Positions 6,025 to 31,834 of a DNA stretch of 51,920 bases are shown here, one piece after another; within the stretch, counting starts at the first letter, position 1, and every line of letters begins with the position of its first letter. Both the position numbers and the translations under genes were made by a program. Source of the stretch: Selenomonadaceae bacterium (GTDB taxonomy: Bacteria > Bacillota > Negativicutes > Selenomonadales > Selenomonadaceae); contig JAFSZS010000008.1 in NCBI GenBank assembly GCA_017455645.1, positions 1-51,920 of the forward strand, written 5' to 3'. Below the pieces are notes generated by a model that was not told the DNA's origin, ran no database searches, and was given only the letters and a program-made list of their open reading frames with translations.

Positions 6025-6096
6025 AAAAATCCCCCCCTACTAAAAAAACCGCCGTAAAATTTAGCGGCAGTTCTTTTAAATTTTTAAATTCAGTTT

Positions 6097-6173
6097 TGGT
6101 GCGATTGGGGCGATTTGAACGCCCGACCTACTGCTTAGGAGGCAGTTGCTCTATCCAGCTGAGCTACAACCGC
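6097..6173 (-). tRNA. tRNA-Arg (anticodon CCT), CCA encoded
   Basis: The reverse complement reads GCGGTTG-TA-GCTCAGCTGGATAGAGC-A-ACTGC-CTCCTAA-GCAGT-AGGTC-GGGCGTTCAAATCGCCC-CAATCGC-ACCA. This is a full cloverleaf with a 7-bp acceptor stem and anticodon loop CT-CCT-AA. Confidence 0.95.
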
Positions 6174-6261
6174 ATTTTTTAAAGTGTAACACTTTCGCAC
6201 TTCATTTGCAAGTTAAAAAATGATTAAAAACGAGATTCTTACTTTGTCCTAAATAAAAAAT

Positions 6262-7656: not shown

Positions 7657-7712
7657 TTAAATTCCTCCTAACAAAAAAAGCCCGCGACCTTCGCGCAGGC
7701 AGGGAAAAAATT

Positions 7713-8678: not shown

Positions 8679-8807
8679 TAAATCGCCCCCAAATTTTTCA
8701 ACTTTTTAACTGATTAACATTTCGCCGCCGATAATTTTTATCCTGCAAATGGAAAATTTTTTAACTTTATGATAAACTTTCGCCAAATTTTTTAAGGGGA
8801 AATTTTA

Positions 8808-9668
8808 ATGGAAAAACCGATAGTAGGCGGGCAAGCCGTAATTGAAGGCGTAATGATGCGCGGCTTCGGCAAAGTTGCAACCGCCGTAAGAGAGCCGAGC
8901 GGCAATATAAATGTTCAAGTGAAAAATGTACATTCAATCGCCGACCGATATAAAATTTTGAAGTTGCCGTTTCTGCGCGGCTCCGTTACATTGATTGAAA
9001 GTTTAATATTGGGGTTGCGCTCCCTGTCATTTTCTGCGCAGGCGGCGGGCGAAGACGACGAGCAACTTTCTGACAAAGAATTAATTTTGACAATGATTTT
9101 TGCATTTGCATTGGCGGCGGTTTTATTTATCGCAATTCCAACTTTCGCAGTAAAATTTTTGCACGATTTAACAGACGACCCTTTTATTTTTAATTTGGCT
9201 GAAGGATTTTTGCGGCTGATAATTTTTATTTTGTATATAGCGGCAATTTCGCAGACAAAAGATATGCAACGGGTATTTCAGTATCACGGCGCGGAGCACA
9301 AAACAATTTTTTGCTACGAGGCAGATTTACCCTTGACAGTAGAAAATGTAAAAAAATTTCCGCGCTTGCACCCGCGTTGCGGCACGGCTTTTTTGTTGAT
9401 TGTAATGATTGTAAGCATTTTTGTATTTGCGTTTTTGGGCTGGCCCGATTTATGGTTGAGAATTTTATCGAGAATAATTTTGTTGCCGGTAGTTGCGGGA
9501 ATTTCCTATGAAATAATAAGATTTGCCGGGCGTTCCAAAAATTCTTTGATAAGGTTAGCGATAATGCCGGGCTTGTGGTTGCAATATTTGACAACGCGCG
9601 AGCCTGACGATTCAATGATTGAAGTTGCAATAAAATCTTTGGAAGCAGTGCAAGTTAAATCTTGTTAA
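8808..9668 (+). CDS. DUF1385-family membrane protein
   Basis: 286 aa. It has the characteristic N-terminus GGQAVIEGVMMRG, the HGAEHK motif and several TM segments. Confidence 0.75.
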   Translation: MEKPIVGGQAVIEGVMMRGFGKVATAVREPSGNINVQVKNVHSIADRYKILKLPFLRGSVTLIESLILGLRSLSFSAQAAGEDDEQLSDKELILTMIFAFALAAVLFIAIPTFAVKFLHDLTDDPFIFNLAEGFLRLIIFILYIAAISQTKDMQRVFQYHGAEHKTIFCYEADLPLTVENVKKFPRLHPRCGTAFLLIVMIVSIFVFAFLGWPDLWLRILSRIILLPVVAGISYEIIRFAGRSKNSLIRLAIMPGLWLQYLTTREPDDSMIEVAIKSLEAVQVKSC

Positions 9669-9800
9669 ATTTGCGCCTAGAATCGATTTTAAGGCACTTT
9701 GAAATTTTTTGATATATTTGTACCCTTCACCCCTGCAAGGCGCGTCTACGGGCAAATGAGAGCGTCTGGAGGGGTAATAAAACTGTACGGGAGAAATTTA

Positions 9801-9986
9801 ATGATTGGGATAATTGCTGAATACAATCCATTTCACGACGGGCACGCCTGCCAAATTTCGGAAATAAAAAAATTTTCAAATGCAGAAATTGTGGCAGTGA
9901 TTAGCGGCAGTTTTACACAGCGCGGCACTCCCGCAATTTTGGATAAGTGGACGCGCGCGCGGCTTGCAGTTTTGGAATGGCGGTAG
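9801..9986 (+). pseudogene. Truncated duplicate of the tmcAL 5' end (61 codons, then EWR-stop)
   Basis: Positions 9801-9975 match 9991-10165 with 6 mismatches in 175 nt. The reading frame ends 11 nt after the homology breaks. Confidence 0.6.
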
Positions 9987-10165
9987 AAAAATGATTGGGA
10001 TAATTGCCGAGTACAATCCATTTCACGACGGGCACGTCTGCCAAATTTCGGAAATAAAAAAATTTTCAAGTGCAGAAATTGTGGCAGTGATTAGCGGCAG
10101 TTTTACACAGCGCGGCACTCCCGCGATTTTGGATAAGTGGACGCGGGCGCGGCTTGCAGTTTTGG
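9801..10165. repeat. Tandem direct duplication, period 190 bp (2 x 175 bp homologous + 15-bp junction)
   Basis: Direct comparison of the two copies. Both start with ATGATTGGGATAATTGC. Confidence 0.9.
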
Positions 10166-11148
10166 GCGGCGTCGATTTAGTTTTGGAATTGCCTTTTGTC
10201 TACGCGGTACGGAGTGCGCAAGATTTCGCACGCGGCGCAGTCAATCTTTTGTCAAAAGTTGGAATTGACACCTTGGCATTTGGCGCGGAAATTTCAAACT
10301 TGGAAAAATTAAAATTAGCAGCGTCAACTTTCAACGATAAAGATTTTGGCGAAAAATTAAAATTGGAAATGTCAACAGGTAAACCTTACGCGGCGGCAGT
10401 TTCAAAAATTTTATCAACCGTCGCGCAGATTGAAGTTGTACAGCCGAATACAATTTTGGCGATTGAATATTTGCGGGCGTTGCCAAAAAATATTACGCCG
10501 CTGTTAATCCCGCGCGGCAAAGTCATTTCAAGCGCAACGTCAATCAGGCAGGAAATTTATAAAAATCCCGTGCAGTGGCAAAAAATTTCAGTACCGCCAA
10601 ATGTTTTGGAAATTTTAAAATCCGCCGAACTTCCGCACGAAGATTTTTTATTTCGCCCGTTAATCGCAAAAATTTTGACTTCCAACTTTGCAGATTTAAA
10701 AAAAATTTACGGCATGAGCGAAGGAATAGAATTTAAGCTGATAGAATCTGCGCGAAGGGCGAAAAATTTTTCTGAACTTGCAGGCGGCGTAGTCAATCGC
10801 AGGTTTCCAATAAGCCGCGTCAAAAGATTGTTGCTGCACTTTTTACTGAATATCACGGCGGAAAAAATTTCTGAAGTTGGAGACTACGCAAGAGTTTTAG
10901 CCTTCAATGAGCGCGGGCAAAAAATTTTGAAAAAAATTCGCACGGCGGGCAATTTGCCAATAGTTACGAAAGTTGCACAGCATTTAAATTCAAAAGAAAT
11001 TTTAAGCGGGAAAATCTTTGAGCCTTACAAAAAAAGCCTCGCAACAGACCTGCTTGCTACAGACCTGCGCGAGACACTTTTTGATTTTCCCCAACATTTT
11101 GGGGAAGATTTTTTTCACGGAATAGAAATTATTTCTAAAAATATGTAA
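9991..11148 (+). CDS. tmcAL: tRNA(Met) cytidine acetate ligase TmcAL (UPF0348 nucleotidyltransferase)
   Basis: ORF 9964..11148. The start at ATG 9991 gives MIGIIAEYNPFHDGH (HxGH nucleotidyltransferase motif). The length is 385 aa. Confidence 0.8.
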   Translation: MIGIIAEYNPFHDGHVCQISEIKKFSSAEIVAVISGSFTQRGTPAILDKWTRARLAVLGGVDLVLELPFVYAVRSAQDFARGAVNLLSKVGIDTLAFGAEISNLEKLKLAASTFNDKDFGEKLKLEMSTGKPYAAAVSKILSTVAQIEVVQPNTILAIEYLRALPKNITPLLIPRGKVISSATSIRQEIYKNPVQWQKISVPPNVLEILKSAELPHEDFLFRPLIAKILTSNFADLKKIYGMSEGIEFKLIESARRAKNFSELAGGVVNRRFPISRVKRLLLHFLLNITAEKISEVGDYARVLAFNERGQKILKKIRTAGNLPIVTKVAQHLNSKEILSGKIFEPYKKSLATDLLATDLRETLFDFPQHFGEDFFHGIEIISKNM

Positions 11149-11251
11149 TTATAAAAGACAAAACACCCGGTTTTTCTATAGTCTCACGATTGTTATTTGC
11201 TGTCAAAGTTCACAGGGCAAATTATCCACGATAGCATAATCTATTTAACGC

Positions 11252-11536
11252 TTATTGAATACGGCTTTTAAGATTGTCAAGAATTTTATTTGCGGCGCGT
11301 TTCAGATTGTGCTTAACGAAATTTTCGGGCACACCCTTTAACTTTGCCTGCTTGGAGCGGTTGCAATGTTTGCATGTACACTGCAAATTATACAGTTCAT
11401 CGCTACCGCCGTATTTTTGCGGGATTATGTGGTCAATGTCAACGTCGCACTTGTGAATTTTTTTTCCGCACTTCGCGCAGGTGTACCAACCGTGATCTGA
11501 TTTATTCGCCGCAAACCATTTTTCCCTGTAATTCAT
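11252..11536 (-). CDS. Stand-alone HNH endonuclease
   Basis: 94 aa. It has CAKCGKK...DIDHIIPQKYGGSDELYNLQCTCKHCNRSK, i.e. a zinc-finger framed H-N-H motif. Confidence 0.8.
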   Translation of the reverse strand: MNYREKWFAANKSDHGWYTCAKCGKKIHKCDVDIDHIIPQKYGGSDELYNLQCTCKHCNRSKQAKLKGVPENFVKHNLKRAANKILDNLKSRIQ

Positions 11537-11640
11537 AAAATCACCACTCTAAATTTTTTCCAAATTATAAAGGAAATTTTCCGGCGCGGCAAGTGTTATT
11601 AATCTTTAACGCGCAGGAAATTTTATTGTAGCAAGTTTCA

Positions 11641-11675
11641 TTGACATTGACAGGGGGGAATTATAAAATTATATA
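11641..11675 (+). promoter_or_regulatory. Candidate promoter upstream of the activase-like gene
   Basis: A tandem TTGACATTGACA supplies two possible -35 boxes. Each sits 17 nt from a -10-like hexamer (TAAAAT at 11664 or TATATA at 11670). The choice is ambiguous and the leader would be very short. Confidence 0.3.
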
Positions 11676-11689
11676 GAGGTGAAATTTTT

Positions 11690-14600
11690 ATGAAAGTCGG
11701 GATTGACATCGGCTCCACGACGATTAAATATGTTGTCATGGACGGCGAAAAAAAAATTCTTCACAAAGATTATTCGCGGCACTTTTCAGAAATTGGTACC
11801 GCGCTGACAAATACTTTATCGACGCTGAAAAATATTGTCGGCGAAACAAAATTTAAAATTGCCTTGGCGGGCTCGGCGGGTATGGGAATTGCCAAAAAAA
11901 TTTCCCTGCCTTTTGTTCAGGAAGTTATCGCCTGTCAAACTGCCGTTGAAGAATTTATACCAAAAACTGATACGGTTATTGAATTGGGCGGCGAAGATGC
12001 AAAAATTATTTACCTGAATGGCGCGCCCGAAGTTAGAATGAACGGCGTTTGCGCGGGCGGCACGGGTTCATTTATTGACCATATGGCAAGCCTCCTTTCA
12101 ACTGACGCGCTCGGCTTAAATGCGTTGGCTGAAAAAGGCAAACAGATTTACACAATCGCTTCACGCTGCGGCGTCTTTGCAAAAACTGACATTCAAGCCT
12201 TGATGAATGACGGCGCAAAAAAAGCTGACATTGCACTTTCAATTTTTCAAGCGGTTGTCAATCAAACTATTGGTAACCTCGCGCAGGGCAGACCTATTGA
12301 AGGCGTGGTTGCATTTTTGGGCGGACCTTTGCACTTTTTGCCGGAACTCAAAAAAAGATTTATCGAAACGCTCAAACTTTCGCCGGAGCAGGTTGTCAAT
12401 ACCGATAACGGGAATTATTTTGTAGCGGCGGGCGCGGCACTTTCTGAAGAGGCAAAAGATTTTTCCCTTGCAGAATTGGAAGAATCTTTGAAAGGGGAAA
12501 GTGAAAAGGGAAAAGTGAAAAGTAATTTGGAGGCGCTTTTCAGCAACAATGACGATTATAAAAATTTCCGCACGCGCCACGATTCGGCAAAAGTTAGGCG
12601 CGGCGATTTAAAAAGTTACAGCGGAAAAATTTTTGTCGGAATTGACGCCGGCTCTACTACAACCAAAATCTGCGCGATTGGCAAAAATAAAGAAATTCTC
12701 TACACAAATTATAAATCTAATGGCGGCTCGCCTTTAAAAACCGTCGTAAGCCAAATTCAGGAGCTGTATAAAAATCTTCCTGAAAATGTGGAAATTGCAA
12801 AAGTTTTTACTACAGGTTACGGCGAACAAATTGTAAAAGCGGCGTTGCATGCGGACGGCTCGGAAGTTGAAACTTTCGCCCATTTGTGCGCGGCGCAGGA
12901 ATTTTGCCCGGAAGTTTCATTTGTTTTGGATATTGGCGGGCAAGATATGAAATGCTTTTTCGTCAAAGATGGCACGATTGGCAACATTACTTTGAATGAG
13001 GCTTGCTCGGCGGGTTGCGGCAGTTTCATTCAGAATTTCGCGCAGGGTTTAAATATGAGCGTCGGCGATTTTGCAAATAAGGCGTTGACTTCAAACGCGC
13101 CGGTAGACTTAGGGACGCGCTGTACAGTTTTCATGAACTCAAAAGTTAAACAGGCGCAAAAGGAAGGCGCAAGCGTCAACGATATTTCGGCGGGAATTGC
13201 TCTTTCAGTAATTAAAAACGCGCTTTTCAAAGTTATGCAACTTCGCAATGTTGAGGATTTGGGCGAAAATATTGTTGTACAGGGCGGCACTTTTTACAAT
13301 GACGCGGTTTTACGTTCGATTGAAGAAATTTTGGGTAAAAAAGTTATTCGCCCTGACATTGCGGGGTTAATGGGCGCGTATGGCGCGGCGATTCTTGCGT
13401 TGGAAAATGACAACGGCGAAATTTCAAAAATTCTTTCAGCAAATGAACTTACAAATTTTGAAGTTGTAACAAAGTCGTATCGTTGCGGGCGTTGCGGCAA
13501 TAACTGCTTGATAACTATGCAAAAATTCCCTGACGGCGGCAAATTTTTTACAGGCAACCGTTGCGAGCGTGGAGTTGGCGGCAAATTAAAAACTTCTGAA
13601 GAAATTCCCAACGCCTATGCTTACAAGTACAAGCGCGTTTTTGATTATCAGCCGCTTGAAAATCCTGCGCGAGGTGTTATTGGTATTCCCCGCGTACTGA
13701 ATATTTATGAAGATTTTCCATTTTGGCACACGTTTTTTACAAATTTGGGCTATCGCGTCGAAATTTCGGGAAAATCCAACGCCGAACTTTTTTATAAGGG
13801 AATGGCGACAATTCCCAGCGATTCTTTGTGTTATCCTGCGAAATTGGCGCACGGGCACATTATATATTTAATTGAACGCGGAATTGACAAAATTTTTTAT
13901 CCTTGCGAGCCTTACAATTTCGACACGCGCTCCGATAATTTTTACAACTGCCCAATCGTTGCAAGTTATACCGAAAATATCCGCGGCAATATGGATATTC
14001 TCAAGGAAAAAAATATTAAATTTATTCAGCCGTTCCTTCCCGTCCACGATATGAAAAAATTAAAAAGGCGGCTTGCAGAAGAATTAAAATCTGAAAATAT
14101 TTCTGAAAAAGAAATTTCGGCGGCAGTTGACGCGGCAGAAATTGAACTTGAAAATTACCGCAATGACGTTAAAAAATTCGGCGAAGAAATTTTAAAACGA
14201 ATTGAGCGCACGGGCGAACAGGCAATTTTGCTTGTCGGGCGTCCTTACCACATTGACCCGGAAATTAATCACGGTATTTCTGAAATGATTCAATCCTACA
14301 ATCTGCCGATAATTTCTGAAGATATGATTTACCACTTGCCGACAAAGTCCAAAAATATTTCGCTTGTCAATCAGTGGAGCTACCACGCCCGCCTGTACCA
14401 CGCCGCGCACTTTGCAACCGAACACCAAAATATTACTTTGATTCAGCTTAGCTCCTTTGGCTGCGGCTTGGACGCGCTGACAACCGAGCAAGTCAAAGAA
14501 ATTTTGGAAAGTCACGGCAGAATTTACACAATGATTAAGCTTGACGAAGTTTCAAATTTGGGGGCGGCGCGTATTCGTTTACGTTCACTTTTAGCCGCGT

Positions 14601-21055: not shown

Positions 21056-21185
21056 TTTGAGTTCCCCCTTGTAAAATTAAAACCAATAAATCAAATATCG
21101 ATATATTTTAAGGTGTAAATTGTAAAGCAGAATTATACTTTTGGCAAGCGTTAAAAATTTTCTCAAATTGAACGGAGGCTTGATT

Positions 21186-23147
21186 ATGGATAATTATGAC
21201 GATACAGAAAATTTGGCAGTCGGAATAGATTTAGGTACAAGCAATTCAACCGTTGCGTACTTTCAAAATGGCGAATGTCATTTTCTGAAAATCCACGGTA
21301 AAAATTTTCTTTCGTCGGTTATATATTTTGCTGAAACTAAATGGATTTACGGCGAAAATGCTTTAAATTTCGGCAGTGCATACCCCGACGCGCTTTTTAA
21401 AAATTTTAAACTTTGCATTGGGGAAAAATCGCCGCAAATTTTTAAGGTAAAACCTGCCGCCGCCAAAACTAAGTATAAGTATATCATAGACGCAAATATT
21501 TTTATTGAATCGCCGTTTATCTTGGAAAAATTCGGCGAGGACGCAGAAATTATAATTCCAAAAATCGTAATTGAAGAATTGGAATACAAAAAAATTTTTC
21601 CTGAAACTGCCGACGAAGCCGAACTTGCTTTACAATCTATCGAAGAATATAAAAATATTATTTCGTTTGAAGATTCACATTTGGAACTTCTGAAAAATTC
21701 TTGCCTCAAAAATAATGCCAACGCCCTTTATCAAATTTTAAGCGTAGCACTCAGGCACGACGCCGCCGATACTGTTTTAATTTCCAATGATAAAATTCTT
21801 GCCAAAAAATCTGCCGATTTGACGCACAAATTTAAAATTCAAAATTATGCAATGTTCAACCTTTACCACAGAATAATTCAAAATATCAGCCACAAAGGCG
21901 AATTTCAAATTACCGGCAAAGACGCCGCCGCAATTTTTCTGCAACACCTGCGCGAAGAAATTTGCAAAAAAATAGGTTACGTCAGCAAGGCGGTTATTAC
22001 CGTGCCGCAGGAATTTTCGCCAATACAATACAACGAAATTAAAGACGCCGGTTTTACCGCCGGTTTTACTGAAATAGAATTGCAAACAGAACCAATAGCC
22101 GCGGCTGTTGCGTACGGAATGGAATTAATGGAAGATGCAATTATTTTGGTTTACGATTTCGGCGGCGGGACTTTTGACGTTTCAATTTTGAAAATTTCCG
22201 GCAATAATTTTACCCGCGTATCTTCGGGCGGCGATTCAAAATTGGGCGGCGAAAATTTTACTCAAGCAATTATCGAAGACTTCAAAGAAAAATTAATGGA
22301 CGCTGAAATTTTGGATATGTTCGACGAAGAAAATTCGGGGCTCTCGCACGAAGAATTTGCACAAAATAATTTTAAAATCTGGAAGGCTTGCGAAAATATC
22401 AAGTGCAATTTGTCTGAAACTCAAAACGAAAGTGAAACCATTCCGCTTTACGTGCGCCCTGGGCAAATTGAAGAAGTTGAATACAATCTTTCACGGGCTG
22501 AATTTGAAAATCTTACCGCCGAACTTATAGTAAAATCCAGAAAAGCCCTGGACCTTACTTTACAGCGTGCCAATTTGAAACGCGGCGATATTGACGTTGT
22601 AATTATGGCGGGCGGAACTTCTTTAATCCCTTGCATTGGTAATTTTGTCAGACAATATTTCGGTAAACAGCCGTATTCTGATAAAAATCCTGCTACTCTA
22701 ATTGCGGAAGGTGCCGCGTTTCTTGCAGATTTAAAATGGAATGACAATTCAACTTCCAATATTGAAATTTTCAATAAAACTATGACTGATTTGGGCGTTG
22801 CAGTCAAAGGGCATATTTTCAACGTGATAATTCCGGCTAATTCTGAATTGCCCATAGCCAAGGAAAGAGTTTATTTTCTGCAACGGGACGAACAAACAGA
22901 ATTGCTTATCGAAATTTTTACTCGTGATGAAGGCAGCAACGCAACACGAATTTTTGACAGCAGTATAAAATGTATTGGGCAGGTACAAATTTCAAACTTG
23001 CCGCCGCTGAAAAAAGACGAAGTTAGTATTTGGGTAAATTTCAGTTTGTCGCCGGAATATGAATTGGAAGTTGAAATTAATTTGAAAGATAATCAGGGCT
23101 TGGAAATTGAACAGGCGCAAGCTGTAATTAATTTGCTTGGAATTTAG
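21186..23147 (+). CDS. Hsp70/DnaK-like ATPase (lidless) with a PIN-like domain inserted in the nucleotide-binding domain
   Basis: ORF 21141..23147. GGAGG at 21174-21178 favours ATG 21186 as the start (653 aa). Hsp70 motifs VGIDLGTSNSTVAY, AVITVPQEF, EPIAAAVAYG, VYDFGGGTFDVSIL, LGGENF and VIMAGGTSLIP are present. The C-terminus is a beta-rich SBD-like region (DLGVAV...IIPANSELP). Confidence 0.85.
   Translation: MDNYDDTENLAVGIDLGTSNSTVAYFQNGECHFLKIHGKNFLSSVIYFAETKWIYGENALNFGSAYPDALFKNFKLCIGEKSPQIFKVKPAAAKTKYKYIIDANIFIESPFILEKFGEDAEIIIPKIVIEELEYKKIFPETADEAELALQSIEEYKNIISFEDSHLELLKNSCLKNNANALYQILSVALRHDAADTVLISNDKILAKKSADLTHKFKIQNYAMFNLYHRIIQNISHKGEFQITGKDAAAIFLQHLREEICKKIGYVSKAVITVPQEFSPIQYNEIKDAGFTAGFTEIELQTEPIAAAVAYGMELMEDAIILVYDFGGGTFDVSILKISGNNFTRVSSGGDSKLGGENFTQAIIEDFKEKLMDAEILDMFDEENSGLSHEEFAQNNFKIWKACENIKCNLSETQNESETIPLYVRPGQIEEVEYNLSRAEFENLTAELIVKSRKALDLTLQRANLKRGDIDVVIMAGGTSLIPCIGNFVRQYFGKQPYSDKNPATLIAEGAAFLADLKWNDNSTSNIEIFNKTMTDLGVAVKGHIFNVIIPANSELPIAKERVYFLQRDEQTELLIEIFTRDEGSNATRIFDSSIKCIGQVQISNLPPLKKDEVSIWVNFSLSPEYELEVEINLKDNQGLEIEQAQAVINLLGI
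21477..21860 (+). other. PIN-like (PhoH/YlaK-type) nuclease domain insert within the first Hsp70
   Basis: The insert reads YKYIIDANIFIESPFILEKFGEDAEIIIPKIVIEELEYKK ... LYQILSVALRHDAADTVLISNDKILAKKSADL. The pattern hhDxNhh / hIPxxVhEELD / hhh(S/T)xDxxLxxKA matches PIN domains. The three paralogues have no such insert. Confidence 0.65.
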
Positions 23148-23159
23148 GAGGAAAATTTT

Positions 23160-23777
23160 ATGGAAGATTATAACCCCGCAGAAGCTGAAAAATTGCTAAA
23201 TGACTTGAAAAATTTTTGCCTGTCAAATGGAGTTATTTTGGTTGAAAAAATTTCCGGCGAAGATAAAATTTTTGAAATTCAAACTGACAAACCAGCTTTT
23301 TACCTTGATATTAAATCTTTGGACGACGCCGCAAAACTCAACGAAATTTTAAAAGAGCACTTAGACACCTTGAAATCAGACAAAAAAATTTTTCTGCAGA
23401 ATCACAGCAAAATTGAGGAAAATATTTATAAAACAATCGACAGTATCAATTTAAGCCGCGCCCAAAAATTTATCGACAGTGGGCTGAAAAAATTTTTGAG
23501 TCAATATAAAACTGTTGAAGAATTACGCGAGGTGGCGGGGCAAATTTACGGCGATTTTATCAAGAGCCAATTAATCGACAGCTTTATTTCAAAATTGTAT
23601 GGCGAATTGAAAAAAAATCCCGGCGTTACTGCGTATATTTATATTGTTCGCAAATTTAATCAAATGTTTGCAGAATTGGGAATTACGGCGGTTGAGAGCA
23701 GCAGCGGGATTGTTTACAAGTTCAAGGAAAATTCCGGCGAAAAATTCATTGCCGAAGTAAAGGCGGGGGGCAAATAA
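23160..23777 (+). CDS. Hypothetical protein, partner 1 of the Hsp70 operon (205 aa, helical)
   Basis: AGGAGG lies 7 nt upstream of the ATG. The stop overlaps the next start (TAATG). No recognised motif. Confidence 0.6.
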   Translation: MEDYNPAEAEKLLNDLKNFCLSNGVILVEKISGEDKIFEIQTDKPAFYLDIKSLDDAAKLNEILKEHLDTLKSDKKIFLQNHSKIEENIYKTIDSINLSRAQKFIDSGLKKFLSQYKTVEELREVAGQIYGDFIKSQLIDSFISKLYGELKKNPGVTAYIYIVRKFNQMFAELGITAVESSSGIVYKFKENSGEKFIAEVKAGGK

Positions 23778-25282
23778 TGGCGTTATTTTTGGGAATTGAC
23801 TTTGGCACTTCAACAAATATGGTAACTTACTGGAATGAAGATAAAAAGCGCGCCGAGCCAATTTATTTGGGAGAGTACGGCGAAGCGGGATATTTTGCAA
23901 ATGTAATTTACTATGAATCTGAAAATAACATAATTGTTGGCGATGTTGCCTTGGCAAAGGGCAATTCAGATTTTTATAACGCTGTATTTTCTATTAAGCG
24001 GCGTTTGGAAAGTTCGGATTTTCGGCAGTACATACCAAATTTAAATCGGAGTCTCGGCACTGAAGAAATTGTGGCTGATATATTTTCTTGGATTAAAAAA
24101 AATGTTGAAATGAAATTTGGCGGGCAAAGTATTGACGGCGTGGTTATCAGCGTACCTTTTGCCTTTCAAAATACCGAACGTGAACGCATTAAAATTGCCG
24201 CTCGTCGCGCAGGGTTGCCGGTTTTAGGTTTGATTGAGGAACCGGTGGCGGCGGCGTTAAGTTTTGGGCTTTTTGAGGATGTCAAAAAATTGAAGGCTGA
24301 AAAAATTTTAGTCTTCGATTTAGGCGGCGGCACTTTCGACGTTACCATTTTTGAATTTTTAAAACAATCTGCCAAAAATTTTAAAATCCTCGTGCTTACC
24401 ACAGACGGCGAAAAGCAACTGGGCGGTATTGATATTGACGATGTACTTGTTAAAAAATTTCTGGAACAACTGAAGGCTGATTATCCTGATTATAATTTGG
24501 AAGCCGTCAGCACTGAAGAACAAGAAAAAGAAATTTTCAGCCTGCGCCAATTTGCCATTGACGTTAAAGAAAATTTGAGTGCTGAAGAAGAGTATGATTC
24601 ACTTTTTGAGAGCAGACTTGGAACGCAATATTTTTTGGAAAAAAATTTTACACGTGAAGAATTTGAAAATTATCTGCGCGAATTTTTGAATGAAATTGAA
24701 AATGTCCTTGACAGTACTTTAAGCGGGGCAGATTTGGAGCCGCAAGATATTGACAGAATAATAATGGTCGGCGGCACAAGTAATATCCCGGCGATTAATG
24801 AAAAAGTGCGTCAATATTTCGGCAAAGCTCCAGAAAAAATTGAGGATTTGGAAACAATGGTAGGCAGAGGCGCGGGGCTTTATTGCGGCTTAAAGTACGT
24901 TGAAAAAAATTTCGATTTTGATATTGCCGTTGGAATAAGCAAAACTACCGGCATTAAGTGGCGCGGAAAATTTCTTGAAATGTTGCCCAGAAATACTTTG
25001 TACGGTACGCCCTCCGAAGTTAAAATTTTGCAACTGCCCCAAAGTACAAAAGTTATAAAAATTCCGGTCGTACAAGGCAACAGTATAACAAATGTAAAAA
25101 TCGGCAGTGTAATTGTTACGCCCGAAATTCTTTCAAAATTAATTAACGGCAGAATCGGCGTCAAATTAAATACTGACGCAAATACCGGCACGATAAGCTA
25201 CGAACTTTATAAAATCGTTCTATTTAAAAATCAGTTACTGCCGGATAAAATTTTGAGCAAAGGCAATATAGGAGATGACTAA
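23777..25282 (+). CDS. Hsp70/DnaK-like ATPase, lidless (paralogue 2)
   Basis: 501 aa. Motifs LGIDFGTSTNMVTY, VVISVPFAF, EPVAAALSFG, VFDLGGGTFDVTIF, LGGIDID and IIMVGGTSNIP are present. Confidence 0.85.
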   Translation: MALFLGIDFGTSTNMVTYWNEDKKRAEPIYLGEYGEAGYFANVIYYESENNIIVGDVALAKGNSDFYNAVFSIKRRLESSDFRQYIPNLNRSLGTEEIVADIFSWIKKNVEMKFGGQSIDGVVISVPFAFQNTERERIKIAARRAGLPVLGLIEEPVAAALSFGLFEDVKKLKAEKILVFDLGGGTFDVTIFEFLKQSAKNFKILVLTTDGEKQLGGIDIDDVLVKKFLEQLKADYPDYNLEAVSTEEQEKEIFSLRQFAIDVKENLSAEEEYDSLFESRLGTQYFLEKNFTREEFENYLREFLNEIENVLDSTLSGADLEPQDIDRIIMVGGTSNIPAINEKVRQYFGKAPEKIEDLETMVGRGAGLYCGLKYVEKNFDFDIAVGISKTTGIKWRGKFLEMLPRNTLYGTPSEVKILQLPQSTKVIKIPVVQGNSITNVKIGSVIVTPEILSKLINGRIGVKLNTDANTGTISYELYKIVLFKNQLLPDKILSKGNIGDD

Positions 25283-25284
25283 AA

Positions 25285-26070
25285 ATGGCAACCAACCGCG
25301 GAAAAAATTCTTCTCAATATAATCAAGGAAATTTATGGTCAGAGGATTTTATTCCAATGAATGAAACAGAATTTCGTACCAGATTTGAATCCATTGACAA
25401 AAATTTGTTGACACTTGCAGAAAAAATAAAAGAGTTGCTGGATAAATTTAACGCGCCCAAAAAAGGCAGTAAAGCTCAAGAAATTTTGGAACAGTTGGAA
25501 AATTTGTCGGCGAAAATTGACAGTTTACCTAAATTTCAGGAAAAAAATCCCGTGTCAAATGACATTCCACAAGATGAAAAAATTATTGAAGAATTGGCTG
25601 AATACGGCGAAAAAATTATGCACCTTTTGGCAATAGCCGCCCGTTGTTACTCCCGCAAATTGCCGGAATTAAAAAAACATCAAGAAGATATTAAAAATAT
25701 CAATGACGCTAAAGAAAAAGAAAAAATTCAAGCCGAAAAAAAAGCCGAGGAACGCGGGCGTAAAGCCGTAATTAAAGACCTGCTTAATCTCTACAGTGAT
25801 ATTCACAACCATTCGGTACTTGCAACTTTTTTGGAAAATCAGGGCGTTGAAAAGCGTTACGAAATTAACGAAGAATTGGAAATTATCGAAAATAATATCA
25901 GAGAGTTGGAAACTTATATTGCTGAATTGCAAATTGGCAAAATTATTATCACTGCACCGGCGTATATTTTCGATGGTGAAGTAATAGCCAGGGCAACCTA
26001 CAAATTCGCGCAGGAAGATTCAACCGCCCAAAATTCGCAGGAAGATTCAGCCGCCCCAAAGGAAGTGTAA
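25285..26070 (+). CDS. Coiled-coil protein, partner 2 (possible GrpE-like exchange factor)
   Basis: 261 aa. It has a long charged helical region (KEKEKIQAEKKAEERGRKAVIKDLLNLY). The C-terminus QGVEKRYEI ... APAYIFDGEVIARATYKFA is reminiscent of the GrpE segments GVExI ... KGYxLxGRxIRxAxVxVA. The resemblance was judged by eye only. Confidence 0.55.
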   Translation: MATNRGKNSSQYNQGNLWSEDFIPMNETEFRTRFESIDKNLLTLAEKIKELLDKFNAPKKGSKAQEILEQLENLSAKIDSLPKFQEKNPVSNDIPQDEKIIEELAEYGEKIMHLLAIAARCYSRKLPELKKHQEDIKNINDAKEKEKIQAEKKAEERGRKAVIKDLLNLYSDIHNHSVLATFLENQGVEKRYEINEELEIIENNIRELETYIAELQIGKIIITAPAYIFDGEVIARATYKFAQEDSTAQNSQEDSAAPKEV

Positions 26071-26073
26071 ATT

Positions 26074-27738
26074 ATGGGCTTTTACGTAGGAATTGACTTG
26101 GGAACTACCAACAGTACAGTTTCTGTAATTCAAACAAAAAATACCGACGATTCACCACTTGACACGCTTACTACTTGCCCAATTTTTCAATATAAAACTA
26201 TTGGCGAATTTATAGCTGACGAATGTTTACCTTCCGCACTAAATTTTGATATTGATAACCGGCGAGTTTATACCGGGCTTTACGCCAAAAATATTTACGC
26301 TTCCGGCGAGCAATCGCTTCAAACTGCCGTATCTGTCAAAACTCGTATTGGCAGCGACGCAAGATTAGAAATTCCAAGCCGTTTTAGAAAAAATATTACT
26401 CAAATTTTCGATATGAAAGAATGCTCCGCGTTTTTTATTCGCACAATTGTAGATTCACTCAAGAAAAATTTTCCAAAATTGGCTGACATTATAACCAATG
26501 AATGTGTTGTAACAGTTCCGGCGGCTTTTAACGACGATGAAAGAGTTGCTACTCAAAACGCAGTTTTATTGGGCGGGTTCAAAAGTTGCAAAATTTTAGA
26601 TGAGCCGACAGCCGCTTTACTTTCCTATATCAACAGTGATTCTTATGACGACTCTGCAGACGACGATACAATTTACAAATTGGTTTACGATATTGGCGGC
26701 GGTACTCTAGATGTTTCAATAGCAAAATTGACAACAGATTTTTTTGGCGATTATAAAGTTGATATTGTGGCTTTATCAGACAGAATGAATTTGGGCGGAG
26801 ATAATTTTGACAGGTTGCTGGGCGCGTATTTTCTCAAGGAATTTGAAAATACCAATGAGCCGATACAATCTTACAGCAAAGAAAAGCAAGCTAAAATTAT
26901 TGCGCGTATAGTTTCGCAAGCTGAAGACTGCAAAATTAAACTTAACAAATTAATTTTGAATTGCGGCAACGATCAAAGAAAATTGGATAAAGTCAAGTTG
27001 GGGGTAGAATTTGAGTTAATCGATAATATGTACGTCAATGGAATTGTGCTGAATAAAAAAATTTTGGACGAATTATTTACTTGTTACACTTCGCCGGAGG
27101 AAAAATTTGGATTAATCGCCCCAATAAAAACTGCCCTTCAACGCGCAAATCTAAAAAAAGAAAATATCAGCGAAGTTATTTTAACCGGCGGAATGGCGCA
27201 ATTTTACGCTGTCAATGAAGCTATTCACAAATTTTTTAAGGACATTCCGATAAGCACTGTTGAAGATACACGAATTGCAGTTTCACGCGGCGCGGCTTTG
27301 TATCATTGGAGCCTTGACGAAGATAACGACGCTGACGACGTAAAAAAAATTTCTACTATCAGTAACAGATTAGCCGCAAATATTTATGTTCGCAATTCTG
27401 AAGGAATTTTTGAATTGCTTGTACCTTATGACCTTAGCGAAACTAAAGGCACTTTCAACTATATAATTTCAGATGACAATGTAACTTATTTTCCTTTTTA
27501 TTTATATTCGGGCAACGGAGATATTACTACTACCTACACGCAACTTGCCGGGCGTATGATTAAAGCCAAGCCGGAATACAAGCGCGGCTCCAAAATTCCG
27601 ATTGATTGGGAAATTGACGAAAACAAAGTTATTACGATAAAAATTCAAGACGACGACAATATAAAATTATCTCGCCTTTTAACGCCCGCCGAAATTTCCA
27701 ATAATGTAATTAATCGCTATTCAATCAACAGGAGTTAA
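26074..27738 (+). CDS. Hsp70/DnaK-like ATPase, lidless (paralogue 3)
   Basis: 554 aa. Motifs VGIDLGTTNSTVSV, VVTVPAAFNDDER, EPTAALLSY, VYDIGGGTLDVSIA, LGGDNFD and VILTGGMAQF are present. Confidence 0.85.
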   Translation: MGFYVGIDLGTTNSTVSVIQTKNTDDSPLDTLTTCPIFQYKTIGEFIADECLPSALNFDIDNRRVYTGLYAKNIYASGEQSLQTAVSVKTRIGSDARLEIPSRFRKNITQIFDMKECSAFFIRTIVDSLKKNFPKLADIITNECVVTVPAAFNDDERVATQNAVLLGGFKSCKILDEPTAALLSYINSDSYDDSADDDTIYKLVYDIGGGTLDVSIAKLTTDFFGDYKVDIVALSDRMNLGGDNFDRLLGAYFLKEFENTNEPIQSYSKEKQAKIIARIVSQAEDCKIKLNKLILNCGNDQRKLDKVKLGVEFELIDNMYVNGIVLNKKILDELFTCYTSPEEKFGLIAPIKTALQRANLKKENISEVILTGGMAQFYAVNEAIHKFFKDIPISTVEDTRIAVSRGAALYHWSLDEDNDADDVKKISTISNRLAANIYVRNSEGIFELLVPYDLSETKGTFNYIISDDNVTYFPFYLYSGNGDITTTYTQLAGRMIKAKPEYKRGSKIPIDWEIDENKVITIKIQDDDNIKLSRLLTPAEISNNVINRYSINRS

Positions 27739-27742
27739 AATT

Positions 27743-29110
27743 ATGAATACCGAAGAATTGAACGAAATATTTAACGCCTTAAATCGAATTAACAGGAGCC
27801 TTGACGAACGCTTTACAAAGGACGCAGATTTTTACATTGAACAGGAACAGATTGAAATTCTCAAAGATTTAATTTACCGTGGCGAATATGATAAAATTGC
27901 TGAAAATTTTAATTCCCGCGTGGTTTTGAATTGGATTGTAAAAAATGCGTGGCTGATTAAAAATGAAAATTACGCGGTACTTCAAAAAATTTTCGACGAT
28001 TGCCCGGACGATTATTTAAAAATTATAATGAGCCAAGATTTTTTTGATAACAAAATTGAAATGCCCGCAAGTTTCAGATTTTGGTTACTTTCAAATTATC
28101 TTAAGCGGCTTGATGAAAAAGCTTGCTCCGATATGTTGCAGGGTAATTTAATTTTTCTGAATCAGCCGACTTTAAGGGCAATTTGCGTCGCGCAGATTCT
28201 CAAAAATAAATCGATTGACGAACGCTACAAAATTTTCAATGAATATTCAATTCAAAGCCCCAATCTTTTATCGCAGGAAAAAATTTTTTCGCCGATATTT
28301 TCTAAACTTAATGACGCCGTAAGAAATTTTATTTTTGAAAATCATTTCGCCCAAGAAACGCCGGCAAGTAAATTTTGGGCTGATATTTTGTCTGCTGAAG
28401 ATGTTCCCTTTATGATGGAAAAATTCAAGCGATATTGTCAAACGCACTCGGCAAATTTGGACGCCTGCAAAGATGTAGACGTAAGATTGTTTTGGATTTC
28501 TACCAAAAATTTTCCGGTGTACGCCAAAGGATTTGCGGCGGCTTGTGCTTGTATGATTCGTACAAAAAATATCAATTTACAAAAAGCCTTGGCAATTTAT
28601 GAACTGAATCACTTTAGCAGATGGGAGCAAGAAAAAAATCAGCTTAAGGCAGAATTGGCAAAAGTTGGAATTACTGATATTGAGGGCGGCGGAGTTTTTA
28701 ACTTTGACGAAATAAAAGAGCGTCTGAATTATCACGGGGCTAATTTTGAAAAACTTTTGTCTGACAACGTTTACCGTTTCCTTGCAGTTTCTTTCAAAAA
28801 AACTTGCGCCCCCGAAGATTTAAAAAAACTTTTTAAGGAAGTTAAATTTCGTGACAGATTTGAGAAACTTTGTTGCCTTCTGATTAAGTTTACAGACAGC
28901 AATTACCAATTAAATTTTGACTATATAAATTGCATGGTTCAGATTATCCCGCAGGAAACCAACAAATATAATCCTTTGGTCGCGTACCTTTTGGATTTTA
29001 TCGCCAACAATAATATTTTGATAAAATACAGGCGTTTTGGAACTTACAATATAGAAAAATTTTTTAGAGAAAAAGATTTTGGGCGTTTTGTTAAAATTGC
29101 ACATTTTTAA
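27743..29110 (+). CDS. Hypothetical all-helical protein, partner 3 (455 aa, no recognised domain)
   Basis: A long ORF with only a 4-nt gap to its upstream neighbour. It is rich in F/K/N/L, with no motif I can name. Confidence 0.6.
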   Translation: MNTEELNEIFNALNRINRSLDERFTKDADFYIEQEQIEILKDLIYRGEYDKIAENFNSRVVLNWIVKNAWLIKNENYAVLQKIFDDCPDDYLKIIMSQDFFDNKIEMPASFRFWLLSNYLKRLDEKACSDMLQGNLIFLNQPTLRAICVAQILKNKSIDERYKIFNEYSIQSPNLLSQEKIFSPIFSKLNDAVRNFIFENHFAQETPASKFWADILSAEDVPFMMEKFKRYCQTHSANLDACKDVDVRLFWISTKNFPVYAKGFAAACACMIRTKNINLQKALAIYELNHFSRWEQEKNQLKAELAKVGITDIEGGGVFNFDEIKERLNYHGANFEKLLSDNVYRFLAVSFKKTCAPEDLKKLFKEVKFRDRFEKLCCLLIKFTDSNYQLNFDYINCMVQIIPQETNKYNPLVAYLLDFIANNNILIKYRRFGTYNIEKFFREKDFGRFVKIAHF

Positions 29111-29125
29111 AACGGGGTGTAATTT

Positions 29126-30580
29126 ATGAATTTCATTGGAATAGATTTAGGTACGACAAATTCGGTTGCTTGTACATTTCAGCGCGGCGATTTTAAATTT
29201 CTAAAATTTTCTGGGAAAGTTTTATTACCTTCGGCGGTTATGTTCAAAGACGGGAAAATTAAAGTTGGCGAGGCTGCCAAAAATTTTTCACAACGCTACC
29301 CAAATAACGTTATAACTTCTGCCAAAACTTATATGGGCGATAATGGTCATTTTTGGGAAATTGACGGGCGCAAATTTACGGCAACAGATGTAGCCGCGGA
29401 AGTTTTGCGGGAAATTTATAAATCTGCGCGAAAATTTTTTAATAACGCTGAAGAAATATCGGCAGTCATAACCGTACCGGAGCAATTTTCAGCCAATCAA
29501 CGAGCCGAAACAAAAAAAGCCGGCGAATCGGCAGGATTTACAGTAAAACAAATTTTGACTGAACCTGTAGCGGCGGCTATTGCATACGCTTTTGGAAATT
29601 CTAAGCCCAATGAAAAAATTTACGTTGTAGACTTGGGCGGCGGCACTTTCGACGTTGCATTACTTGAGGCGCGCGAAGATGATTATTACAAAACTTTGAT
29701 ACAGGGCGGAAATCGTTCCTTGGGCGGCGATGACTTCGATAAAGCGTTGGTAAATATAATGATAATCGAAATTTTTACAAATACCGGCGTTGAATTAACA
29801 GAGGCTGAAAAATCCGGCTTGAGTCCCGCGCAATATTCAACAACCATTCAAAAAATTTACATTGAAGCCGAAAAAGTCAAACGGGCGTTAAGTAATGCTG
29901 AATCTGCGCAAGTCGATATAAAAAATTTGTTCCCGTACAAGGACGGCGTTTTTGATTTTCATATGACAATAACCCGTGAAGAATTTTTAAAAGAAATTTC
30001 TCAATATGTGCAGGAAATTGAAACTGTAATAAAAAATTCATTTGAAGGTACAGAATTTAGCGCGGCAGATGTAGACCGTGTAATTTTAGTAGGCGGCTCT
30101 GCAATGATGCCTTTTGTCAGGGAATGCGTACAAAAAATTTTCAACAAAGAACCTTATTCTATTGACGACCTTTCAAAATTGGTTGCAATGGGCGCGGCAA
30201 TTTTCGCAGATGATACGCTCGGCAACGGGATTGAACACCACGATATTATTTCTCATTCTTTCGGCGTTGAATTAGTTGGTAAGAGAATGGAAAAAATGTT
30301 ACTGCAAAATGAAGAATACCCCTGCGAACGCACAAAAACTTTTTATACTGTCGAAGATAACCAAAAAGCAGTAAGAATTAATGCTTACGAAGGCGAAGAT
30401 ACCGAAGAAGTGGAGCAGAATCGTTATATAGGCGGATTTGTATTGCGGGGAATTGAAAAAGCTCCCGCCGGTAAAAAAATTGAAATACGATTTGCCTTTG
30501 ATAAGAATTGCATTTTGCACGTTATGGCGAAAGACCCAAAAAAGCCCGGCGTTGAAAAAGAAATTGATTTAACTACATGA
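29126..30580 (+). CDS. Hsp70/DnaK-like ATPase, lidless (paralogue 4, most DnaK/HscC-like)
   Basis: 484 aa. Motifs IGIDLGTTNSVAC, AVITVPEQFSANQR, EPVAAAIAYA, VVDLGGGTFDVALL, LGGDDFD and VILVGGSAMMP are present. An SBD-beta region follows (SHSFGVEL ... INAYEGED ... IEIRFAFDKNCILHVMA). Confidence 0.9.
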   Translation: MNFIGIDLGTTNSVACTFQRGDFKFLKFSGKVLLPSAVMFKDGKIKVGEAAKNFSQRYPNNVITSAKTYMGDNGHFWEIDGRKFTATDVAAEVLREIYKSARKFFNNAEEISAVITVPEQFSANQRAETKKAGESAGFTVKQILTEPVAAAIAYAFGNSKPNEKIYVVDLGGGTFDVALLEAREDDYYKTLIQGGNRSLGGDDFDKALVNIMIIEIFTNTGVELTEAEKSGLSPAQYSTTIQKIYIEAEKVKRALSNAESAQVDIKNLFPYKDGVFDFHMTITREEFLKEISQYVQEIETVIKNSFEGTEFSAADVDRVILVGGSAMMPFVRECVQKIFNKEPYSIDDLSKLVAMGAAIFADDTLGNGIEHHDIISHSFGVELVGKRMEKMLLQNEEYPCERTKTFYTVEDNQKAVRINAYEGEDTEEVEQNRYIGGFVLRGIEKAPAGKKIEIRFAFDKNCILHVMAKDPKKPGVEKEIDLTT

Positions 30581-30595
30581 GCGGGAGAGTTTTTT

Positions 30596-31507
30596 ATGCC
30601 TTTGGAAAGAAAATCTGATGCGCCCAAAAAAGTTGAAGAAGAAAATATTTTTGTACCGGAAGAGCCGCGCTACAGTCTTGACGATATTATTTTAACACAA
30701 TCGACAAGAGACCAAATTTTGGACGTGGCAACTTACGCCGAAAATTCGCAGTTGGTTTTTGACATTTGGGGATTTAACAAGACGCACAAATATTCAAAGC
30801 GCGTTGGAATAAATTTGTACGGCGCGCCCGGCACGGGTAAAACTATGGCGGCGCACGCAATAGCTAAGCAACTTGGCAAAAAAATTTTAATCGTCAACTA
30901 CGCGGATATTGAATCAAAGTACGTTGGCGAAACTCCAAAAAATATCAGAAAAGCATTTGAGGCGGCGAAAAATTCCGGCAGCATTTTATTTTTTGACGAG
31001 GCGGACGCAATTTTGAGCAAGCGCGTTACAAATATGACGCAAGCCGTTGATGTCAGCGTAAATCAGACGCGCTCGGTTATGTTAATGTTAATGAATGAAT
31101 ATCAAGATTTTATAATTTTTGCCACGAATTTTATTGAAAACTTTGACGCGGCTTTTATGCGCCGAATTTCTGTACACGTGAAATTTGAATTGCCTGATTT
31201 TGAGTGCAGGAAAAAACTTTGGCAAATGTACATTCCAACAGAATTTGCGGCGCAGTTTGAAAATCTTGACATTGACGAACTTGCAGGAAAATATTCCGGA
31301 ATTTCCGGCAGTGACATTTCAAACGCTGTACTCAACGCCGCTTTTAAAGCTGCGCGACTTGTTCCCGACGGCAACGTTCAAAACGCCGCGCTTAAAGCAA
31401 AATATAAAGCCTCCTACACCAATTCAAATAAACTCGACAAGAAAATTTTGTTTGACGCGGTAGAAAATATTTTGGAAAGTAAGCGTGCTAACGATGGAAA
31501 AATTTAA
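30596..31507 (+). CDS. Classical-clade AAA+ ATPase (single AAA module)
   Basis: 303 aa. It has Walker A GAPGTGKT, Walker B ILFFDEAD, sensor-1 FATN, and arginine-rich DAAFMRR of the second region of homology. Confidence 0.9.
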   Translation: MPLERKSDAPKKVEEENIFVPEEPRYSLDDIILTQSTRDQILDVATYAENSQLVFDIWGFNKTHKYSKRVGINLYGAPGTGKTMAAHAIAKQLGKKILIVNYADIESKYVGETPKNIRKAFEAAKNSGSILFFDEADAILSKRVTNMTQAVDVSVNQTRSVMLMLMNEYQDFIIFATNFIENFDAAFMRRISVHVKFELPDFECRKKLWQMYIPTEFAAQFENLDIDELAGKYSGISGSDISNAVLNAAFKAARLVPDGNVQNAALKAKYKASYTNSNKLDKKILFDAVENILESKRANDGKI

Positions 31508-31757
31508 GTGCGATTGTTGCGGCTTGTGTTGCAGGCACATTAACTGCAGTGAACTTTCAAAAAATCTTGACAGAGGCGACGGCGTTTGTAAATTTCTTGA
31601 CACTGAAAAAAATCTTTGTACGATTTATGACAGCCGCCCCGATTTTTGCAACGTCGAAAAAGGATATAAAAAATATTTCGCCGAATTTTACACTGAAGAA
31701 GAATATTTGCGCTTGAATTATGAAGCGTGCAAGAAACTTAGGGATATAGGGATATAG
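31494..31757 (+). CDS. YkgJ/UPF0153-family cysteine-cluster (putative Zn/Fe-binding) protein
   Basis: ORF 31485..31757. The start at ATG 31494 gives MEKFKCDCCGLCCRH...GVCKFL...CTIYDSRPDFC, and GTG 31485 is an alternative start. The gene overlaps the AAA+ stop by 14 nt. Its last 5 codons and stop lie in the GGGATATA repeat. Confidence 0.7.
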   Translation: MEKFKCDCCGLCCRHINCSELSKNLDRGDGVCKFLDTEKNLCTIYDSRPDFCNVEKGYKKYFAEFYTEEEYLRLNYEACKKLRDIGI

Positions 31758-31806
31758 GGATATAGGGAAAATTCTTGGAACCCTATGACCCTTTATCCCT
31801 AGCCCC
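31741..31806. repeat. G-arm / C-arm inverted repeat of the GGGATATA family closing the Hsp70 operon
   Basis: (GGGATATA)3GGG spans 31741-31767, a 13-nt loop follows, then CCCTATGACCCTTTATCCCTAGCCCC spans 31781-31806. The element has the same layout and orientation relative to the upstream gene as the one at 19654-19724. Confidence 0.85.
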
Positions 31807-31834
31807 TTAAAAACTACTGAAGGGAGTTTTTAAA

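Follow-up and report, generated by a model that had tools for sequence, protein, structure and literature searches.

A seven-gene cassette of four lidless Hsp70 paralogues and their partner proteins in Selenomonadales: a possible mobile conflict system

Hsp70 is among the best-studied of all protein machines, yet many lidless derivates of DnaK found in bacteria have no known role. What might a bacterium do with four of them encoded side by side? The question is raised by a 51,920-nucleotide stretch of DNA from a Selenomonadaceae bacterium (assembly GCA_017455645.1, contig JAFSZS010000008.1; this whole stretch is called the window here), which contains four lidless Hsp70 genes (H1-H4) interspersed with three genes for partner proteins (p1-p3). 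An original prediction, made from the letters of the window, had described a nine-gene operon of four Hsp70-partner pairs closed by an AAA+ ATPase gene and a small Cys-cluster gene. We find that the evolutionary unit is seven genes, H1 through H4, not nine. The locus is a tractable case, as it offers four paralogues in fixed order with cognate partners, a mobile cassette, and natural empty-site controls.

The full set of Hsp70 nucleotide-binding domain (NBD) motifs with which the four products had been credited is present: Pfam E-values (Table 1) and alignment to Escherichia coli DnaK agree, and the DnaK residues D8, K70, E171, D194, GGG196-198, T199, D201 and GG341-342 are kept throughout H1-H4. 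The ATPase site is complete in every paralogue and locus aligned, except H2 of one relative (L010; the loci compared carry L numbers). The C-termini of all four fall near DnaK residue ~500, with the beta-basket kept and the helical lid missing, as predicted, and coverage by the Pfam HSP70 profile ends at position 440-496 of 599. Mutual identity over the NBD is 24-33%, which is comparable to the distance of each protein from DnaK and bears out the earlier view that the copies are strongly diverged. The NCBIfam equivalog models for DnaK, HscA and HscC give H1-H4 scores of 142-332 bits, below cut-offs of 620-1019. H4 is the nearest of the four paralogues to DnaK; H3 is the most divergent Hsp70 yet the best-conserved gene of the cassette, its identity being 68-72% among Selenomonadales loci and 38-47% in the remote ones.

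H1-H4 do not conserve the features by which DnaK is coupled to J-proteins. The position of DnaK R167 is occupied by E, G, K or Q, and the equivalents of the interdomain linker (DVLLLD/VLLLD in DnaK) read IEIFN, FDIAV, VKISN and IEHHD. The lack of an HPD motif was confirmed, as neither a scan for the tripeptide nor the Pfam DnaJ model detected a J-domain in any of the nine products. Judged from their sequences, H1-H4 are lidless Hsp70s that are competent for catalysis and not redundant with one another.

The signature protein of the system is p3. Its AlphaFold2 (AF2) model, with a predicted local distance difference test (pLDDT) of 82.6 and ~30 helices, confidently predicts an all-alpha solenoid, in keeping with the helical character ascribed to it before; Foldseek against the PDB returned generic HEAT/ARM/TPR helical-repeat neighbours only (best E=0.012) and no specific relative. 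HspBP1/Sil1-type exchange factors were not among the 50 Foldseek matches listed for p3. Six cysteines (C87, C128, C148, C232, C268 and C377) are invariant in 11 aligned p3 sequences whose overall identity is only ~36-41%, and may point to metal or redox chemistry.

The idea that the cassette contains no co-chaperone is called into question by p2. A profile of the p2 family (9 members) matched a 4-sequence GrpE alignment in hhalign at 75.9% (E 2.3e-5, 125 columns, GrpE 56-193), with 0.9% for a reversed-sequence control and 30-40% for shallower alignments. The likeness was not detected in HMMER-level searches, nor did family members taken one by one match Pfam; against a single E. coli GrpE sequence, which retrieves the grpE genes of L061-63 at 2e-20, the p2 hhalign comparison was insignificant. 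The AF2 model of p2, built from a 4-sequence alignment, had a pLDDT of 43, too low to judge a GrpE fold. Orthologues of p2 measure 356-518 amino acids in total and have a far longer N-terminal coiled coil, and the C-terminus of the protein is probably a GrpE-like exchange domain placed behind this variable coiled coil.

The remaining partner, p1, has 205 amino acids in the window versus 256-280 in its orthologues, the shortening being C-terminal, and these orthologues hold the equivalent position in L001, L005, L007, L010, L102 and L104. One of them matches Pfam GrpE at E=0.009, and hhalign of p1 against GrpE was not significant. Homology between p1 and p2 was considered and found no support in profile comparison; profiles of both, run against PDB sequences, gave coiled-coil noise only.

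H1 bears a PIN_4 insert within NBD lobe IB (amino acids 99-209, ~nt 21480-21812; 44.2 bits versus a cut-off of 21.9, E 2.9e-11). With the motif positions taken from what we assume to be the PIN_4 consensus, three of the four acidic residues are present in the window (D in IID, E in EEL and D in SND) and the third of the four is missing: NDxKIL has become ALYQIL (Asp to Leu) in the window and in L011. This residue is retained in L010, L001, L005 and L102, so that the claim of a nuclease-bearing member suits other members of the family better than the window's own copy. In fuller variants of the cassette H1 also has a ~200-residue N-terminal extension (L001:1652-2300; L104:2021-4660) that weakly resembles the C-lobe of protein kinases (Pfam Pkinase E=1.9e-4; YSAPE...VFSYG) and may serve as a sensor or adaptor of the pseudokinase type.

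Homologues of p3 were sought by a word-indexed search, among GTDB representatives, and by an exhaustive profile search of 1.84 billion representatives. These recovered, respectively, 10 clusters, four Selenomonadales/Selenomonadaceae metagenome-assembled genomes (MAGs), and 92 clusters, 22 of them at E<1e-30; p3 was a standalone protein of ~445-515 amino acids in 92/92 representatives. In all loci recovered, homologues of the cassette genes lie together with their order unchanged, and the block is conserved as an ordered unit. Its gene order is common to L001-L013 and L102-L104, and partly to L107 and L108. The hosts are rumen and bioreactor Selenomonadales, plus unrelated genomes of 24-29% GC (L104-L108), in which the Hsp70s remain orthologous one-to-one to those of the window (H1 41%, H2 47%, H3 47%, H4 50% identity).

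Variant A, the seven-gene form H1-p1-H2-p2-H3-p3-H4, occurs in the window, L011, L012 and L010. Variant B (L001-L006, L102, L103, L104 and L108) is fuller and combines the kinase-like H1 and longer p1 and p2 with an H4-vWA fusion and a HerA-like module. H4 orthologues in fuller loci reach 655-669 amino acids, with a C-terminal vWA domain in L001, L005, L009, L104 and L108 whose metal-ion-dependent adhesion site (MIDAS) motif is intact (DxSxS, DNSGS). H4 is followed by a protein of ~176-197 amino acids, a HerA/FtsK-like ATPase of ~1100 amino acids that matches PADLOC mad8 at 4e-22 as well as defence HerA models, and one or two ~200-residue proteins with hydrophobic N-termini. The larger system, of 10-11 genes (11 in L001, 10 in L104), runs kinase-like Hsp70-PIN, p1, Hsp70, p2, Hsp70, p3, Hsp70-vWA, small protein, HerA-like ATPase, and one or two small proteins. 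Compared with it, the window's copy is without the kinase-like N-terminus, the p1 C-terminus, most of the p2 coiled coil, the vWA domain and the HerA module, and is a reduced form of this conserved system.

Two observations concern individual modules. The HerA-like ATPase of L001 (L001:13752-17072) carries a ~230-residue low-complexity region rich in Ser, Gly, Thr and Gln between its N-terminal domain and its ATPase core. L107 (positions 1001-13314) encodes three Hsp70s, p3, a 306-residue protein, ZorA-like (2.6e-12) and ZorB-like (1.2e-19) proteins and a 1515-residue protein, and resembles a hybrid of an Hsp70 module with a Zorya-type motor.

Where the cassette begins and ends can be read from relatives that have it and relatives that do not. 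In blastn comparisons of the window with L016 and L022, homology breaks at 21058 and restarts at 30592/30626, and the junction alignments show that the ribosome-binding site (RBS) of the AAA+ gene is kept directly after the stop codon of H4. The cassette lies between the former promoter region of the AAA+ gene and its RBS in a Selenomonadales chromosome. Four cassette-free relatives (L016, L017, L022 and L023) have the order major facilitator superfamily (MFS) transporter / AAA / CxxCxxCC / DJ-1, with an AAA+ protein 90-93% identical to that of the window. L010, a Selenomonadales MAG, shares these flanks and contains a cassette of its own. Its MFS transporter, AAA+, DJ-1 and a 100-residue protein are 92-95% identical to those of the window (AAA+ 94%), whereas the identities of the cassette products are 60% for H1, 38% for p1, 53% for H2, 43% for p2, 68% for H3, 44% for p3 and 62% for H4.

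Deeply divergent cassette alleles together with empty alleles at one site, within flanks ~93-95% identical, are typical of accessory, frequently exchanged loci, and these presence/absence alleles also bear out a patchy distribution. The AT-richness of the block, previously judged by eye, was confirmed by computation (37.2% GC in the cassette versus 41.3% in the remaining window). Selenomonadales copies of variant B occupy differing chromosomal contexts, with an XRE/C-protein/CapH-like helix-turn-helix (HTH) gene upstream in L001 and L004 and, in L004, also a transposase. Together, the empty-site alleles, the divergent cassette genes within the similar flanks of L010, the lower GC content and the differing contexts of variant B show that the cassette is horizontally mobile.

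The nine closely packed same-strand ORFs first described, and their junctions, were reproduced (Table 1), with spacings of -23 to +15 nt on the + strand, but the layout of four Hsp70-partner pairs over nine genes does not survive, since the AAA+ and Cys-cluster genes occur without the cassette in close, syntenic relatives and are therefore not members of it. The AAA+ protein was rejected as a cassette member, and so as a fourth partner: it belongs to a large family (4924 homologues at E<1e-20; more than 120 clusters at an identity of at least ~70% in Selenomonadaceae), occurs without the cassette, and diverges like the flanks (94% amino acid identity between L010 and the window) rather than like the cassette genes (38-68%). 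None of 80 metagenomic AAA loci contained the cassette (0/80). The AAA+ and Cys-cluster genes are resident neighbours, now co-oriented and probably co-transcribed with it. Promoter-like sites internal to the cassette lie at 30453-30508, ahead of the AAA+ gene.

Is the reduced cassette of the window still in use? The ratio of nonsynonymous to synonymous substitution rates (dN/dS) was computed between the window and L011, whose flanks are ~96% identical at the nucleotide level. It was 0.11 for H1, 0.17 for H2, 0.09 for H3, 0.19 for H4 and 0.18 for p3, and 0.37 and 0.61 for p1 and p2, respectively. None of the seven ORFs is broken, either in the window or in two further copies of its allele (L011 and L012). 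Selection maintains the cassette genes, with the fastest evolution in the small partners p1 and p2.

Table 1. Positions and annotation of the features of the window
Feature	Coordinates	Strand	Annotation
Accessory insertion	21059-30591	+	127-nt leader, then seven genes H1-p1-H2-p2-H3-p3-H4; ~9.5 kb
H1	21141/21186-23147	+	Pfam HSP70 1e-75, PIN_4 2.9e-11; lidless, PIN_4 within NBD lobe IB
p1	23160-23777	+	205 aa, partner; matches no Pfam family
H2	23777-25282	+	Pfam HSP70 2e-58; lidless, short beta substrate-binding domain (SBD-beta)
p2	25285-26070	+	261 aa, coiled-coil; probable GrpE-like C-terminal domain, aa ~126-241; no Pfam match
H3	26074-27738	+	Pfam HSP70 6e-44; lidless
p3	27743-29110	+	455 aa, predicted all-alpha solenoid (HEAT/ARM/TPR-like); no Pfam match
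H4	29126-30580	+	Pfam HSP70 5e-94; lidless
AAA+ ATPase, classical clade	30596-31507	+	Pfam AAA 106 bits; resident gene
Cys-cluster protein, YkgJ-like	31485-31757	+	Pfam CxxCxxCC 25.3 bits; resident gene
G/C-armed imperfect hairpin	31738-31810	+	RNA fold, GGGATATA repeats, 3' of Cys-cluster gene

The AAA+/CxxCxxCC pair is widespread in Selenomonadaceae, and the CxxCxxCC gene follows the AAA+ gene directly or within ~1-2 kb in many cassette-free loci. The upstream neighbour of the pair differs by genome: nothing in L016, the Hsp70 cassette in the window, a radical-SAM gene in L020, and in L018 genes for a 1758-residue STAND/AAA_16-like protein and a 344-residue protein, beside HTH, protein-kinase and HicB genes. 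This variety may mean that the site attracts insertions, or that different neighbours share the AAA+ protein as a partner. Downstream of the pair, the G/C-armed hairpin that had been noted is borne out by its fold energy (-33.5 kcal/mol) and z-score (-4.4). It lies between the Cys-cluster gene and DJ-1 and is built from GGGATATA, repeated three times in tandem, and an arm further downstream that is complementary in part. No U-tract follows it and a terminator scan makes no call there; the hairpin spacer is missing in L011, where the Cys-cluster and DJ-1 genes overlap.

What, then, might the cassette do? The reading we favour, with a confidence slightly short of even, is that it is a mobile hetero-oligomeric Hsp70 sensor or switch, equipped with exchange factors of its own, that acts in conflict or defence. 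A sensor or switch, rather than a general folding chaperone, is suggested by the one-to-one retention of four paralogues across distant hosts and by their full ATPase sites. Such a device would work in four steps. The beta-baskets would grip exposed peptide segments of foreign or aberrant proteins, with no lid to trap and refold them. The nucleotide state would then be reset by the dedicated partners, p2 acting as a GrpE-type exchange factor and p3 and p1 as further exchange or adaptor factors. The conformational change would reach the outputs, namely the PIN RNase in lobe IB of H1 and, in fuller variants, vWA plus the HerA-like ATPase or a ZorAB-like motor. Lastly, the result would be defence or abortive infection against invaders. 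The output side is eroded in the window's copy, as it has no vWA and no HerA and its PIN domain is short of one acidic residue; this copy might rely on the AAA+ unfoldase encoded downstream, or its action might be weaker or altered.

Taken as a whole, and held more tentatively still, the proposal is of an undescribed class of mobile immune or conflict machine, in which four lidless Hsp70s, each with an exchange or adaptor factor, would capture peptides to detect invaders and gate a PIN RNase and interchangeable motors (vWA plus HerA-like, or ZorAB-like). The link to conflict or defence, first suggested from the window alone, gains support from the vWA, HerA-like and ZorAB-like modules of related loci and remains indirect. 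Hsp70 modules in predicted defence systems have precedent (PMC11090510, PMC7159879), lidless ones included (PMC12642450).

Several findings weigh against this reading. No curated model ties any component to defence, and PADLOC finds no system; p3 has no relatives in plasmid, phage and IMG/VR collections, and what flanks the cassette in the window is a set of housekeeping genes and no defence island. The ZorAB link is known from one locus (L107), the GrpE assignment of p2 is a 76% profile match without structural confirmation, and the nuclease of the window's PIN insert is probably impaired, inactive or weakened. Individual copies decay: H2 of L010 is cut to 378 residues with a broken phosphate-2 motif (L010:6083-7219), and L007 is without H4, housekeeping genes following p3 (L007:5482-7100). 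In addition, an AAA homologue with 62% identity lies ~220 nt downstream of hrcA-grpE-dnaK-dnaJ in L061-63 (L061:4815-10879), an adjacency that hints at a plain proteostasis connection and at an affinity of the AAA family for Hsp70 systems.

This last point leads to the alternative that survives best, although we consider it rather unlikely: a specialised proteostasis module, in which the lidless paralogues would be Hsp110-like co-chaperones, exchange factors or holdases for the housekeeping DnaK and, with a GrpE-like factor and an AAA+ unfoldase, would aid stress survival in some strains. Such a role has been proposed for lidless DnaK derivates (2026 review, PMC13580251), and the module would make sense of ATPase sites and beta-baskets that are intact and under purifying selection, of the GrpE-like domain of p2, of the AAA neighbour of dnaK in L061-63, and of a gene directly downstream of the cassette for an AAA+ protein with the classical Y-V-G pore loop. 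PIN, the kinase-like N-terminus, vWA, the HerA-like ATPase and ZorAB, by contrast, are not chaperone accessories, and the DnaK residues and linker for J-protein coupling are not conserved. The extreme rarity of the system (92 per 1.84 billion representatives), its presence/absence polymorphism and the deeply divergent alleles that share one site also argue against proteostasis.

A second alternative, which strikes us as quite improbable, is an assembly or export machine in which the Hsp70s would pass clients to a HerA/FtsK-type ATPase and membrane-anchored small proteins, in a loosely type VII-like manner, so that the window would hold the chaperone half only. Variant B does end with a HerA/FtsK-like ATPase bearing a long Ser/Gly/Thr-rich region and with two paralogous proteins with hydrophobic N-termini, vWA is fused to H4, and vWA-flanked EssC/HerA/SpoVK modules with a possible secretion role are described in the CoCoNuT paper (PMC11090510); but WXG100-like substrates or channel components were not detected, the models that give the HerA-like protein its best scores are defence-type HerA/mad8 ones, the HerA module is dispensable in variant A and has ZorAB-like genes in its place in L107, and the PIN insert would go unaccounted for. 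Just as improbable is a third alternative, that the window's cassette is decaying, does little or nothing at present and travels as part of the AAA+ transcription unit. The losses relative to fuller variants and the further decay in L010 and L007 speak for it; seven intact ORFs in three copies, low dN/dS for the Hsp70s and p3, and a reduced architecture that also persists in the deeply divergent L010 allele speak against it.

If the cassette is a defence or conflict machine as we favour, the sensing of peptides by Hsp70 would take its place beside the STAND, AAA+ and GTPase switches in the core logic of prokaryotic immunity, and bacteria would have a counterpart to hetero-Hsp70 assemblies, of which Hsp70-Hsp110 and the ribosome-associated complex (RAC) are examples. 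Even as a stress module, the cassette would be the first operon to be defined that is dedicated to several Hsp70s and exchange factors of their own.

Does the cassette correspond to anything already named? It was proposed as an Hsp70-centred multi-gene system without a named counterpart, and this stands: PADLOC v2 calls no system in the window, its models matching the Hsp70 NBDs only weakly (PDC-M61B) and otherwise giving generic AAA hits, all NCBIfam scores are far below cut-off with no curated model naming the system, and no description of a four-Hsp70 operon was found in the literature searched. The architecture falls outside every named system tested. Like canonical DnaK-DnaJ-GrpE, the cassette has Hsp70-type NBDs with catalytic residues, a beta-basket substrate-binding domain and, in p2, a probable GrpE-type factor. 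Unlike it, the cassette has no lid, no VLLLD linker, no equivalent of R167, no J-protein and no hrcA, and it contains four ancient paralogues, carried as one mobile unit, with PIN, kinase-like and vWA domains inserted or fused. Lidless or truncated DnaK derivates in complex bacteria, proposed as Hsp110-like co-chaperones (PMC13580251), are likewise paralogues that descend from DnaK, with a lid that is reduced or lost and additional domains at either terminus; the review gives no ordered four-paralogue operon with cognate partners, nuclease, vWA or HerA, whereas the cassette is patchy and mobile.

The nearest parallels come from predicted defence systems. CoCoNuT type III CnuD / NxD-McrB combines an Hsp70-like NBD/SBD with a HEAT-like module, and CoCoNuT operons have vWA, HerA and SpoVK-type ATPase add-ons (PMC11090510). 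The cassette resembles them in its Hsp70 plus helical-repeat module and its vWA and HerA add-ons, and differs in having no McrB GTPase, McrC/DUF2357 or HEPN, four paralogues versus one, and p3 as a separate protein (92/92); moreover, the ATPase motifs of CnuD are degenerate, whereas those of H1-H4 are intact. Neither an McrB-like NxD GTPase nor the McrC N-terminal DUF2357 was matched by Pfam or PADLOC in the window's cassette, L001 or L104. A lidless DnaK-like domain on EACC1-protease defence modules has been suggested to sense misfolded or foreign proteins and trigger an effector (preprint PMC12642450), and is likewise a lidless Hsp70 as a candidate sensor. Its identity to DnaK is ~50% and it is joined to a protease-effector pair, whereas H1-H4 have 30-35% identity over the NBD, stand alone in four copies, and come with no protease.

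GTPase-centric conflict systems include HSP70/GrpE (with a GAP1-N2 GTPase) or tubulin/HSP70, and MoxR-vWA ternary systems are also described (PMC7159879, Kaur et al. 2020). Here the likeness lies in chaperone-type NTPases with vWA and effectors in patchy, diversifying operons, including some HSP70 plus GrpE pairs. The cassette differs in that no GTPase, tubulin or MoxR AAA+ domain was detected, vWA being present only in H4 of variant B, and in that its Hsp70s are core rather than accessory. As to IetAS, the AAA+ gene downstream of the cassette resembles IetA within the classical AAA domain (PADLOC 8.8e-36), but it reaches 120 bits versus an NCBIfam IetA/IteA cut-off of 510, it is resident in many genomes, cassette-free ones included, and no IetS subtilisin-like protease gene lies near it in the window. 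Zorya differs in that ZorA/ZorB-like genes are found only in the remote L107 and not in the window. The likeness of the cassette to these systems is conceptual only, a matter of combining a chaperone-type NTPase with vWA and an effector, and its nearest counterparts in that sense are CnuD, the EACC1-protease modules and the GAP1-N2 HSP70/GrpE pairs.

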